DNA from: Acidimicrobium ferrooxidans
Lineage (GTDB): Bacteria; Actinomycetota; Geothermincolia; Fen-727; Anoxymicrobiaceae
DNA length: 64,000 nt
Assembly (NCBI GenBank): GCA_020723485.1
Contig: DYIU01000001.1
Coordinates: forward strand, 646,265 to 710,264
Direction: 5' to 3'
The notes beneath the pieces were generated by a model that searched no databases, was not told the origin of the DNA, and saw nothing but the letters and a program-made list of their open reading frames with translations. This document shows, in pieces, positions 36,391 through 39,637 of the stretch; within the stretch, counting starts at the first letter, position 1, and the number at the start of each line of letters is the position of its first letter. A program made the translations under genes and the position numbers.

Positions 36391-37815
36391 GTGGGTTCGG
36401 GGTTCCGGTTCTTCAGGGAAGACCTCTGCGACCGCTGCGGCGTTTGCTTCGAGCGCTGCCCGGTGCTCGAGCTTCCCCCCGAGGAAGCGAAGCGGCAGAT
36501 CGAGATACTCATCAGCGGCGATGCGGGCGCCTCCTTGGTGCTCCGGCGCTGCGTAACCTGCAACATCTGCGAGTTCGCCTGCCCGCAGCGCGCGAACCCT
36601 TACGGCCTCATCCTCGAACGCCACAATGAAGCCCTCGAGGACCGCGGCCTGCCCTACATAGCCAGGTTCATCTTCCCGAACGAGCGCGAGAACATGTGGA
36701 CCTCCACCCGGGTGCTGATGGACGATGAAGAACTCGCGCTCCTTCGTTCCTGGGAGGACAACCTCAACAACCCGAGGAAGGAAGTCCTGCTCACCGGCTT
36801 CTACAACAACCTGGTGCCGTTCATCGCCGGGGCATCGCTCCTCGAGGAGCTCAAGCCGGCAATCGTCGGCAGCGACATGATGTTCGGGATGGGCGAGGAC
36901 GCCTACAGGATCGGTTTCTTCGAGGAGGCTGAAAGGCTGGGCCGGCTCGCCGGTCGCAGATTCTCGGAGATGGGCGTGGAGAAGATGTACTGCTTCATGG
37001 TCGTGGAGGCCTCCATGTTCACCGACGTGCTGCCGAGGAAGTTCGGCGTCGACTTCGACTTCGAGGTCGAACTGCTGGACAGCTGGATACTCGACCGGCT
37101 GAAGAGCGGGAAGATCGAGGTCAGGGAGCAGCTCGACATGAAGGTCGCCGTCCACGACAACTGCTGCGGCAGGTACATGGACGGGACACTGCCCGGCGCA
37201 ACCCGCGAGATAGTGAAGCTTACCGGCTGCGAGGTCGTCGAGATGCGGCACTGCGGCGAGCGCGCTCTCTGCTGCGGTTGGGCCGGGACCGTTCCAACTC
37301 TTTTCGGGCCGACATCGAGCAACCCCCTGCATACCCTGCTCAACCTGCTGCAGGGCCTGTACCTCAGGCAGCAGGAGGCCGAGGCGACGGGAGCCGACGC
37401 CGTGGTCGTACCCTGTCCCGGCTGCTACGTGTTCCTGTCGATGATAAAGGTCCTGACCGACGGCAGGGTGGACGTGTACCTCCCGATAGAACTGGTGCAG
37501 ATGGCAGCCGGGGAGACTCCAGCGCACAGAAACGAGGAAAGGGCCTGGGACATCCTCGCAGTCACCAGCAACCTCGTTCTCAAGTGGATATTCTCACCAA
37601 AGCGGTTCTTCCCAGGACCTGTTGACATCGACATGCCGCTCCCCGAAGCAAGGGCGGGCGACGCCGCCCGCATAAAGCTGTTCGCCAGGCTGTATCACAG
37701 CGCCATTGTGCAGAACCGACTTACGAGGACCGCCATCGCCGCGGCCACCAGGGCCATCATAGCGGCCTACCGTGTATACCTCGAAACAGAGAAGCGCAGG
37801 CTGCTCCGCACTTGA
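36391..37815 (+). CDS. Fe-S protein with 2x[4Fe-4S] and CCG domain (HdrD/GlpC-like)
   Basis: CDRCGVCFERCP, CVTCNICEFACP, HDNC, LCCG and CPGC motifs. Confidence 0.85.
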   Translation: MGSGFRFFREDLCDRCGVCFERCPVLELPPEEAKRQIEILISGDAGASLVLRRCVTCNICEFACPQRANPYGLILERHNEALEDRGLPYIARFIFPNERENMWTSTRVLMDDEELALLRSWEDNLNNPRKEVLLTGFYNNLVPFIAGASLLEELKPAIVGSDMMFGMGEDAYRIGFFEEAERLGRLAGRRFSEMGVEKMYCFMVVEASMFTDVLPRKFGVDFDFEVELLDSWILDRLKSGKIEVREQLDMKVAVHDNCCGRYMDGTLPGATREIVKLTGCEVVEMRHCGERALCCGWAGTVPTLFGPTSSNPLHTLLNLLQGLYLRQQEAEATGADAVVVPCPGCYVFLSMIKVLTDGRVDVYLPIELVQMAAGETPAHRNEERAWDILAVTSNLVLKWIFSPKRFFPGPVDIDMPLPEARAGDAARIKLFARLYHSAIVQNRLTRTAIAAATRAIIAAYRVYLETEKRRLLRT

Positions 37816-37819
37816 TCCA

Positions 37820-38224
37820 GCCAATCAATTTCCCTGAGACAGCGCGCCGGTGGCAGGGTCCCCATCGCTGCAACGCCAACTGATTTCCACAAGAACCCAT
37901 CCGTTGGTAGGGGTCCCCATCGCTGAAAGGCCAACTGATTCCCACAATCTTCAATCCGTTGGTAGGGGTCCCTGGCGTCAAACGTGCGTTGAATACCCAC
38001 CACTCCACGCCGGGGGTAGCCAAGGATTGGCTGAACGATTCCCATATGCACCCATCCGGTGGTAGGGGTCCCCATCGCTGAACGCATGCAGAGAAAATGT
38101 AGTTCGCGATGGGGGTAGACGAGGGATTGGCCGACTAGTTCCCACAACCGCCCATCCGGTGGTAGGGGTCCCCATCGCTGAGCGCATGCAGAGAAAATGT
38201 AGTTCGCGATGGGGGTAGACGAGG
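37820..38224. repeat. Non-coding tandem array of structured repeats (units at 37847, 37901, 37956, 38056, 38156)
   Basis: Core CCGKTGGTAGGGGTCCC occurs 5 times with periods 54, 55, 100, 100; 38051-38124 and 38151-38224 differ at one base. Confidence 0.9.
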
Positions 38225-38269
38225 AGCCTATGAAACACACGACAAACAACTTCCTCGTCGTTGGGGAGA

Positions 38270-38389
38270 GGACAACCGGGCCTTGGAACCGGGTCCCGCA
38301 TGATGCGGCGTATCAGACCTTAATGCGGCAACTCTTGGGGATATTTGGATGGTCCAAATACTTTAACCCTGAGCTGTACCCGGTTGTCC
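38270..38389 (-). ncRNA. Candidate structured RNA element
   Basis: Perfect 11-bp closing IR GGACAACCGGG/CCCGGTTGTCC enclosing TATTTGGA/TCCAAATA and CCGCAT/ATGCGG stems. Confidence 0.4.
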
Positions 38390-38583
38390 GAACTTGGTAC
38401 TGGCAACCAATTCTCCCGGCGACGCCGGGAGTCCCGGCCGCCTGTCGGATGAGAAGCGGTACCTCTGGGTACCATTTTTACCGGTGAACGGTCGATTATC
38501 AACGTAAATACCCATTTGCGGGCAAAAACGGGTGTTAAACAGCATATTCAGTAGGTGAGCGGAAAAAATGAACAATAAGCAGG

Positions 38584-39321
38584 CTACATGTTCAATATCT
38601 TCTTGAGTTCCGAGCTCTGGCGTCGGCTCATCGGTATCTTGCTCTGCCCGGGGTCGTTCATGGTGAGCTCGTACGAGGAGGTGCCTATCCTGGTGATGGC
38701 TTTGACCTTCTGCAGGTTGACGATGTAACCCCGGTGGGCGCGGAAGAACTTGAGCGGGTCGAGCATCCGTTCGAGTTCAGCAAGGGTATGGTTGGTCAGG
38801 AACCGGTCGTTATCGGTATGCAGGTACGTGTACTCGCGCTGGATGTTGATGAAGTTTATGTCGTCCACGTTGACGAGGTAGATCTTGTCGCCCTTCCTCG
38901 CCGGTATCTGCGGCCTCGTGGAGTCGCGATATGTCGTCCTCTCGGAGCGCTTCAACACCGCCTCGACCCGGGCCATCAATTCAAGCGCGCTGAAAGGCTT
39001 GGTGACATAGTCGTCGGCCCCGCCCCGCAGTCCCTGGACCTTGGACTTCTCGTCGGCGAGCGCGGTGAGCATTATTATCGGGAGGTCCCTGCTCTTGGGA
39101 TCGTCGCGCAGACGGGTCAGCACCTCCCACCCATCGATCTTGGGCAGGAGCACGTCGAGCAGCACGAGGTCGGGATTGGCCTCCTTGACCTTCTTGAGGC
39201 CTTCCTCGCCGGTCGCCGCCGATTCCACGAGGTAACCCTCGAGCCTCAGGCTCTTCGTTATCATCTCGCTGATGAGAGGCTCGTCCTCTACAACGAGCAC
39301 CCGCAGCTTCTCCCCGTTCAT
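38584..39321 (-). CDS. LytTR-family response regulator (REC + LytTR)
   Basis: VVEDE, LLD and KPF receiver motifs; FFRAHRGYIVNL and IPMSRR LytTR motifs. Confidence 0.92.
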   Translation of the reverse strand: MNGEKLRVLVVEDEPLISEMITKSLRLEGYLVESAATGEEGLKKVKEANPDLVLLDVLLPKIDGWEVLTRLRDDPKSRDLPIIMLTALADEKSKVQGLRGGADDYVTKPFSALELMARVEAVLKRSERTTYRDSTRPQIPARKGDKIYLVNVDDINFINIQREYTYLHTDNDRFLTNHTLAELERMLDPLKFFRAHRGYIVNLQKVKAITRIGTSSYELTMNDPGQSKIPMSRRQSSELKKILNM

Positions 39322-39466
39322 TTCACCTTTCACGCCGCCCGGGACTCCGCCGACCGGACAGGGTCATCGATAGAACTTGCTCGCATGAGACGTGGCTTGC
39401 CGCTCCCGCTCCGCATCATCGGCCTCGTGCCGTTCGCATAGGCCGCTCCGGCACAGCCGATAATGG

Positions 39467-39493
39467 ATTATAACACAGGCCGATAGCTGTCAA
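39467..39493 (-). promoter_or_regulatory. Promoter of the LytTR regulator
   Basis: Extended -10 TGtTATAAT; TTGACA lies only 15 nt upstream, which is short. Confidence 0.45.
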
Positions 39494-39637
39494 AGATGTC
39501 GCTCGGCAACCAGGCCTCGCGGGCGTTCCGGGCGGGCCTCGACGGTTAATCGAAAATTAACACGAGAGTAAGGGAACGTTAACGCCACGGAGCGATACTC
39601 GATCCAGGAGCTCCAGAGAAACGGTCAAAGGAGTCTG

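Follow-up and report, generated by a model that had tools for sequence, protein, structure and literature searches.

The array and its neighbourhood

The window, that is, the whole stretch of 64,000 nucleotides that was analysed, carries a non-coding array of structured repeats between a protein-coding gene and the gene for a small RNA. To the left of the array, a gene for a CCG/4Fe-4S (HdrD-like) protein on the plus strand (36391..37815) ends 5-30 nt before the repeats. To the right lies the gene for a structured RNA of about 204 nt on the minus strand (38262..38465), the 3' end of which reads ...CCA and is abutted by the array; the array and its 37-nt trailer stop 2 nt short of position 38262. 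Upstream of this RNA gene and syntenic with it is a gene for a response regulator with a LytTR domain, also on the minus strand (38584..39333). An earlier, sequence-only reading of the same DNA had associated the array with the LytTR regulator. This link is not supported, since the 204-nt RNA gene intervenes between the two and the constant partner of the repeats across genomes is the 3' end of a tRNA, a tmRNA or the 204-nt RNA. A search with ARAGORN detected no tRNA within the window. The HdrD-like gene is missing at the syntenic position in four other genomes (G001, G007, G013 and G009), in which a convergent upstream gene is found 200-400 nt from the 204-nt RNA gene. A search for a pseudo 3' end to the left of the HdrD-like gene found none, and the gene is thus not bounded like cargo.

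The array is made up of five units arranged head to tail on the plus strand, with starts at 37847, 37901, 37956, 38056 and 38156 and lengths of 54, 55, 100, 100 and 69 nt, as had been described. Units 1 and 2 (37847..37955) are half units of 54 and 55 nt, in which the head, a mimic of a 3' end, is followed by the 5' arm of a hairpin designated P1 and by a linker. The suggestion that the short units are internal deletions is borne out to the extent that they are devoid of the loop and the 3' arm. Unit 3 (37956..38055), with P1 at 37970-37978/38007-38015 including one T.G pair, and unit 4 (38056..38155), with P1 at 38070-38078/38106-38114, are full units of 100 nt. The terminal unit 5 comprises 69 nt and extends with its trailer over 38156..38261; its P1 is at 38170-38178/38206-38214, and a second helix involving the trailer, P2, is at 38218-38224/38253-38259 of the plus strand. 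Tandem Repeats Finder reported the two kinds of unit separately, as a repeat of period 55 at 37856-37972 (2.1 copies, 87% matches, score 178) and one of period 100 at 38012-38224 (2.1 copies, 89% matches, score 340). The head motif TGGTNGGGGTCC has four exact occurrences in the window, every one inside the array; with up to one mismatch, it has 10 matches in the window against 1.9 expected, a number reached in none of 100 shuffles.

The repeats are explained by no open reading frame, in agreement with the non-coding nature assigned to them earlier. The 9-bp stem claimed for units 3-5 is present, and unit 3 differs from units 4 and 5 in it by three double changes and one substitution of T.G for C-G. 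A search of Rfam 15, including the RtT, tRNA, riboswitch and ribozyme models, with cmscan over 37000-39500 (E up to 10) gave no covariance-model match in 37820-38262. The observation itself is therefore upheld by the units, the stems, the absence of an ORF and the absence of an Rfam match. Two further structural proposals fared differently: the second hairpin is predicted in single units of the window's genome only and is missing when 11 units of three genomes are folded to a consensus, and for the pseudoknot between the tail of one unit and the head of the next, a crude column-pair scan gave scattered pairs with no contiguous covarying helix. A CRISPR array was considered and rejected, because the stretches between the conserved motifs are themselves repeated, units 4 and 5 being near-identical throughout. 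Arrays of the same kind were found in independent assemblies, and the half units have a counterpart on an unrelated metagenome contig (L113), where two 54-nt half units precede the full unit.

Distribution of the element and its partner RNA genes

A covariance model (R1) was built from 11 units of three genomes and used to search the genome of the window (hereafter G000) and other genomes of the family (G001, G007, G013 etc.). R1 has 9 matches in G000 (E up to 1), and matches are present in 6 of the 16 other genomes assigned to Ca. Anoxymicrobiaceae by record title, with 1 to 13 per carrier genome (E up to 0.01). The match in G012 falls in coding sequence and is probably false; a match on contig C189 of G005 (L009) was discarded as a chance match within coding sequence. 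The element is restricted to this one family, with a single weak match (E = 8e-4) among 34 genomes of other families of the class. An exact-motif scan with one genome per species yielded 11 loci, 10 of them in records of Ca. Anoxymicrobiaceae, Ca. Geothermincolia or Actinomycetota. The eleventh, from Vicinamibacterales (L053), is without the flanking motifs and looks unrelated; the flanking motifs are also missing from L095, L115 and L122, which were set aside likewise. A scan of metagenomes added 30 loci.

The unit recurs both in relatives and elsewhere in the window's own genome, where it lies beside tRNA-Thr-CGU; ARAGORN places this tRNA on the opposite strand, just past the array. Of the 31 model matches that were inspected, 10 face an intact tRNA encoded on the other strand and stop 30-34 nt short of its 3' end, a conserved trailer filling the interval, and two more are inner units of tRNA-abutting arrays. 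The tRNAs abutted in the ten cases are Thr-CGU, Thr-UGU, Leu-CAA, His-GUG, Gly-GCC, Gly-UCC and Arg-CCG, and the tRNA partners of the element overall represent at least 8 anticodons. Four loci adjoin the 204-nt RNA gene, one array adjoins a tmRNA, and several more copies are found beside a tRNA 3' fragment that has been split from its gene by another insertion. All copies at these RNA genes have one fixed orientation, with the last base set against the reverse complement of the CCA end of the tRNA, tmRNA or 204-nt RNA. A single copy is present at most loci, and truncation or loss of the 3' arm is seen in some copies.

The exception to this placement is one copy of G000 (L023, C3:755260-755365), which has no RNA gene near it and consists of P1 and the head between a gene for a PALP enzyme and a gene for a protein kinase. 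This copy is without P2 and is followed by a U-rich stretch, and hence might work as an ordinary terminator there.

Anatomy, covariation and the folding strand

In plus-strand order, a full copy is composed of a leader, the head, the hairpin P1 and then either 2-4 nt or the hairpin P2, over a total of about 60-150 nt. P1 is a 9-bp stem closed by an A/C-rich loop of 24-30 nt, and its foot is GGGGT/GTAG in every copy; the loops and linkers in general are A/C-rich and G-poor on the plus strand of the window. The head is the reverse complement of a tRNA-like 3' end, ...ACCCC[G/T]ACCA, and its reverse complement corresponds to the last 10 nt of tRNA-Pro of the window's genome. Followed in the direction of the resident gene, each unit ends in a mimic of a tRNA 3' end (...ACCA). 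Long-type units carry the tRNA-Pro-like end irrespective of the resident gene, and the linkers of short-type arrays keep remnants of the end of the resident tRNA or tmRNA.

The helix P2, which the sequence-only reading did not contain, is conserved. In copies with a long trailer it is formed by the 7 nt that follow P1 and the 7 nt just before the RNA gene, and seven different complementary versions of it were seen. Its pairing brings the foot of P1 next to the junction with the RNA gene, which is the geometry of the short-type copies from metagenomes, in which P1 is followed, without P2, by 2-4 nt and then by the reverse complement of the tRNA end.

Both helices are kept by compensatory change across many copies. 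For P1, an alignment of 27 sequences has 96.7% of cells paired and 5 of 9 pairs changed on both sides, and values as high were obtained in none of 500 shuffles. In 14 terminal units, P2 by itself is 98% paired, and 5 of its 7 pairs have changed on both sides. When P1 is considered jointly with P2 in these 14 units, 96.8% of cells are paired and 7 of 16 pairs show double changes; the observed values are reached by none of 500 shuffles, and slid controls give 33-56% paired.

The strand on which the structure forms can be approached through the wobble pairs. From the window alone, the plus strand had been proposed as the favoured one; every wobble pair in the wider set of copies fits this strand, which runs opposite in sense to the RNA genes. 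In P1, 9 cells are wobble pairs, and the 6 cells that are unpaired include no A.C or C.A; at the fourth pair, a pattern permitting all four combinations found CG in 27, TG in 9 and CA or TA in none of 36 distinct copies. The P2 of the copy on contig C2 of G000 has two G.U pairs. Shared descent of many copies reduces the independent wobble events to about four, and on the opposite strand the P1 variant is also readable as a one-base bulge. Folding on the plus strand, antisense to the RNA genes, is favoured by these comparisons of sequences, not proven.

The 204-nt RNA gene

The RNA gene next to the array also follows the element in G001, G007 and G013. It was identified at 82-94% identity in 7 further genomes among 301 sampled from the phylum, all within the order, and occurs as one copy per genome across the family and the order (also L066-L072, L033 and L035). 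Its minus-strand fold has many invariant G.U pairs (z = -4.4), and a promoter-like site at 38502-38474 on the minus strand is placed for a start near 38465. Contigs of 159-235 nt assembled from RNA libraries, from four runs of four studies (X1, X2, X5 and X12), cover 38261-38465 and little else. Over 37600-38238 such contigs provide only the unaligned end of X5 and, being assembled, are uninformative on the transcription of the array and its strand. One RNA-library contig closes on itself, 38465 being joined to 38262 with a period of 204, which implies that the RNA is circular or that its genes lie directly in tandem in the organism concerned.

An Rfam scan of 38225-38480 gave only two matches, both at chance level (E = 1.5 and 2.4). 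Identity with 6S RNA was considered and not adopted: RF00013 finds nothing in the genome, although 9 of 14 control genomes also go undetected by this model, and the rod-like shape of 6S RNA is not seen in the fold. The SRP RNA is located elsewhere in the genome. A second small locus, found in G001 (L073, C94), G002 (L074, C19), G019 (L075, C42) and G009 (L076, C28), shares with the 204-nt RNA a core of 35-45 nt, 95-100% identical to the middle of that RNA and situated inside a long hairpin of about 95 nt. The flanks of the second locus are promoter-like and U-rich, and it has no Rfam match at gathering score. It may represent a paralogous small RNA or a shared binding module.

Spread within genomes

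Copies of the element group by genome rather than by locus. Those of G001 at tRNA-Gly-GCC, Thr-UGU and Thr-CGU are 82-92% alike; the genus g7 has a subfamily of its own at Thr-UGU, Gly-UCC, Arg-CCG and Ala-GGC; and the orthologous copies of G000 and G001 at Leu-CAA and His are not mutual nearest relatives. The element is absent from the tRNA-Gly-GCC and Thr-UGU genes of G000. The grouping by genome and these element-free genes together suggest that copies reached new RNA genes, or were overwritten, within lineages. The likeness within genomes could also stem from gene conversion. Four kinds of locus (His, Leu-CAA, Thr-CGU and the 204-nt RNA) hold copies in two or more genera, and this retention could mean a function for the host and not selfish spread.

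No pair of a filled and an empty site with alignable flanks was found in the comparisons of G001, G007 and G013 with G000, of G013 with G007, and of G009 with G007, G013 and G001, and the boundaries of the insertion are for this reason not defined; in the comparison of G007 with G013, the contig ends at the repeat. The 3' flanks of the tRNA genes differ in each genus examined. The nearest approach to an empty site is provided by G004 and G009, in which the 204-nt RNA gene is followed, where others have the element, by a hairpin and a T-run that constitute an ordinary intrinsic terminator.

Other repeats at tRNA ends

Small bacterial repeats (REP, MITE and similar) are usually scattered through intergenic DNA. 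Downstream of about 12 tRNA genes and of the tmRNA in G000 (e.g. C3:550860, C5:530045 and C2:241526) there are repeats of another family, composed in order of a spacer of about 25 nt, an inverted T-arm-like fragment and hairpins of G6/C6 runs. This second family lies just outside the array of hairpin units at tRNA-Thr-CGU of G000 and G007. Upstream of the array, the tRNA 3' end recurs as an inverted copy at 2 of 15 loci (tRNA-Thr-CGU of G000 and G007); this copy belongs to another element. A third repeat, containing ...GTCGGTACAGG..., parts a 3' fragment of tRNA-Thr-UGU from the intact gene by 150-270 nt. Splitting of tRNA genes by other insertions was noted at L038 (G007:C300), L042 (G013:C227), L047 (G007:C169), L027 (G013:C325) and L007 (G001:C8); at the last of these, nothing but the 3' half of tRNA-Thr-CGU is left next to the array, the arrangement to be expected where an integrated element has its distal end. 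G000 has three Y1_Tnp (PF01797) matches, and two of them (C5:225451-225711 and C3:242875-243060) are within about 1 kb of tRNA genes (Ala-GGC and Ser-GCU), which suggests that the tRNA flanks of this genome are also used by HUH-type elements.

Interpretation of the array

The array is best explained as a cluster, amplified in place, of a repeat element that is non-autonomous, depends on its structure and homes to the ends of stable-RNA genes, a reading that we regard as somewhat probable. The element, which would be mobile at present or have been so recently, would carry no gene of its own and would depend on a trans-acting enzyme that recognises the P1/P2 fold and places the element at the 3' terminus of genes for CCA-ending RNAs. 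The element's own ...ACCA mimic would regenerate the insertion site, and tandem and half copies would accumulate through further insertion or unequal recombination. Array growth would follow from the regeneration of an ...ACCA end by each unit together with unequal recombination. In the window, insertion and amplification would have occurred at the end of the 204-nt RNA gene; the half units there are themselves duplicated.

Among the Y1/HUH and reverse transcriptase genes that were profiled, no candidate enzyme tracks the element. Y1_Tnp genes (PF01797) are present in 14 of the 17 genomes of the family, G000, G001, G007 and G013 included, and the element in 7 of the 17; no copy of the element adjoins a PF01797 match. 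Reverse transcriptase (PF00078) was not found in G000 (95% complete), G007 (90%) or G013 (77%), which hold most of the copies; it was found in G001 and five other genomes, four of these five being without a convincing copy. The neighbouring ORFs of the window and of L023 include no recombinase.

A more specific proposal is that the element is copied via RNA: a plus-strand transcript folded into P1 and P2 would serve as template for reverse transcription primed by the 3'-OH of a mature RNA that ends in CCA, and recombination would afterwards fix the resulting RNA-cDNA hybrid at the gene. Priming at the level of RNA would account jointly for the exact abutment, the antisense orientation, the unrelated targets that have only CCA in common and the chaining of units via the ...ACCA mimic. 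As no reverse transcriptase was found in the three genomes with most of the copies, we rate this proposal as quite unlikely; if true, it would mean a class of bacterial retro-elements targeted by RNA 3' ends.

Two alternatives assign the repeats to RNA rather than to DNA mobility. The main competing reading is that the repeats are a co-transcribed 3'-trailer module similar to rtT, made on the same strand as the tRNA, tmRNA or 204-nt RNA precursor, with hairpins that form or protect the 3' end or are released as small RNAs ending in ...ACCA. The position directly downstream of a stable-RNA gene and in its sense, the CCA-end mimic that closes every unit in that sense and, at the 204-nt RNA gene, the replacement of the intrinsic terminator of G004 and G009 all accord with such a module, as do the terminator-like hairpin and U-rich tail of the window's trailer on the minus strand (38261-38239) and the contig X5, in which the RNA gene is continuous with the trailer and with 68 nt of a unit (an assembled contig, the strand of which is not readable). 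We nevertheless consider a trailer module unlikely, since all wobble pairs fit the opposite strand and become mismatches or a bulge on the tRNA-sense strand, no U-run follows either hairpin with the exception of the window's trailer, tRNA-His and tRNA-Leu-CAA in five element-free genomes show no common signal that has been replaced, and the arrival of near-identical copies at new tRNA genes is left unexplained. The preference of the wobble pairs for the plus strand, the covariation of both helices and the A/C-rich, G-poor loops and linkers on that strand would instead agree with an independent plus-strand ncRNA (a multimeric aptamer, a sponge or a processed array) transcribed towards the RNA gene. 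Such an RNA is highly improbable here: most loci have a single copy, some of them truncated or without the 3' arm, no sigma-70-like promoter was found on the plus strand in 37700-38650, the transcript would run antisense into an essential RNA gene, a free-standing RNA gene is not expected to abut a CCA end constantly, and no Rfam family matches. Of the multimeric ncRNA or HUH-type ssDNA substrate that the sequence-only reading had envisaged, the part that stands is a structure under compensatory change; a multimeric ncRNA is considered the less likely reading.

The remaining two alternatives invoke known kinds of DNA mobility. An HUH-type substrate would be one possible form of a mobile element, but HUH genes are uncorrelated with the repeats (14 of 17 genomes for Y1_Tnp against 7 of 17). 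A miniature element of REP/RAYT or IS200/IS605 type, with P1 and P2 recognised by a Y1 transposase, is suggested by hairpins that are strand-specific and tolerate G.T, by the GTAG motif beside the foot of P1 and by the Y1_Tnp genes of G000, G001, G007 and G013. It is hardly to be expected given that no copy flanks a Y1_Tnp gene and that G000 has only 9 copies, whereas hundreds are typical of REPs; moreover, IS200/IS605 elements have their target 5' of the left end on the folding strand, and the fixed neighbour here lies 3' of it. The ends of tRNA and tmRNA genes are classical integration sites, and the array might consist of old attachment-site scars, stacked and decayed, from integrative elements that insert at these ends, as happens in the accretion of cis-mobilisable elements. 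The pseudo 3' ends in direct orientation with the resident gene, the remnants of the end of that gene in short-type linkers, the insertion of other elements into the same tRNA genes and the tandem islands with 20-bp ssrA repeats described for Dehalococcoides in PMC3146451 are in line with this. The copies are distributed over more than 10 different RNA genes with 3' sequences that share little beyond CCA, unlike the sites of a single integrase with sequence specificity; selection on folding, as implied by the compensatory changes of P1 and P2, would be surprising in scars; and no integrase gene is linked to the copies examined, all of which makes scars very unlikely.

The element described here is placed to the exact base at mature 3' ends, whether of tRNA, of tmRNA or of an unrelated RNA, and its two helices are kept by compensatory change. 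This pattern points either to a hitherto unknown mode of DNA insertion, guided by a feature that exists at the level of RNA, or to an undescribed 3'-end module that serves stable RNAs in a deeply branching actinobacterial lineage without cultured members. The analysis has in addition brought to light a conserved RNA of about 204 nt that has no match in Rfam and is recovered in RNA libraries of several habitats, and the covariance model and the clear junctions can be used for tracking the element in metagenomes and metatranscriptomes.

Comparison with known systems

The literature searched in full text (subscription journals being outside the scope of the search) holds no description of the element or of repeats in this lineage and, as far as it was searched, no retroelement primed at CCA ends in bacteria. 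Several known systems share some of its features. The rtT structure is a 178-bp tandem repeat distal to tRNA-Tyr in the tyrT operon of E. coli. Like rtT, the array consists of tandem non-coding units directly downstream of an RNA gene, each with a copy of a tRNA 3' end. It differs in that rtT occupies one locus in enterobacteria, whereas the element is found at many RNA genes, including a tmRNA and a non-tRNA gene, and has covarying hairpins of its own, wobble pairs that fit the opposite strand and no match to Rfam, the RtT family included. The rtT RNA has been tied to the processing of the tyrT transcript in bioRxiv 10.1101/2024.07.17.603846.

With REP and REPIN sequences the element has in common that it is a short extragenic palindrome with GTAG beside the stem, occurs singly or in arrays and is homogeneous within a genome. 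REPs exceed 100 copies per genome according to PMC2817692, whereas the element has around ten (9 in G000 and 1-13 in the other carriers), strictly at the 3' ends of RNA genes, without alternating orientation and without linkage to or correlation with RAYT genes. The tandem islands of Dehalococcoides, separated by 20-bp ssrA repeats according to PMC3146451, are likewise units stacked behind the gene of a stable RNA, with direct copies of a segment of its 3' end as boundaries; the units described here are, in contrast, only 55-100 nt long, contain no genes and no integrase, are found at many RNA genes and have covarying hairpins.

The attC sites of integrons conserve structure over sequence, fold in a strand-specific manner, are homogeneous within a genome and form arrays, often just after an ORF; their R''/R' core is GTTRRRY. 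Conserved structure, strand-specific folding, homogeneity within a genome and arrangement in arrays are also properties of the element, but P1 is not flanked by an R''/R' core, no cassette ORFs separate the units, and the anchor is the end of an RNA gene and not an attI site beside an integrase. Identity with attC was accordingly rejected, the foot of P1 being GGGGT/GTAG in all copies and the units abutting without ORFs.

In the Mauriceville retroplasmid, the plasmid reverse transcriptase starts at tRNA 3' ends, as PMC9925561 reports. A mechanism of this type acting at CCA ends would account for the presence of the element at tRNA, tmRNA and another RNA alike and for its antisense orientation to them, although, unlike in the retroplasmid, no reverse transcriptase gene was found in G000, G007 and G013. 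We file the finding as a variant of the small structured repeat elements, notable for its target, the 3' ends of stable RNAs, and for the 204-nt RNA to which it led.
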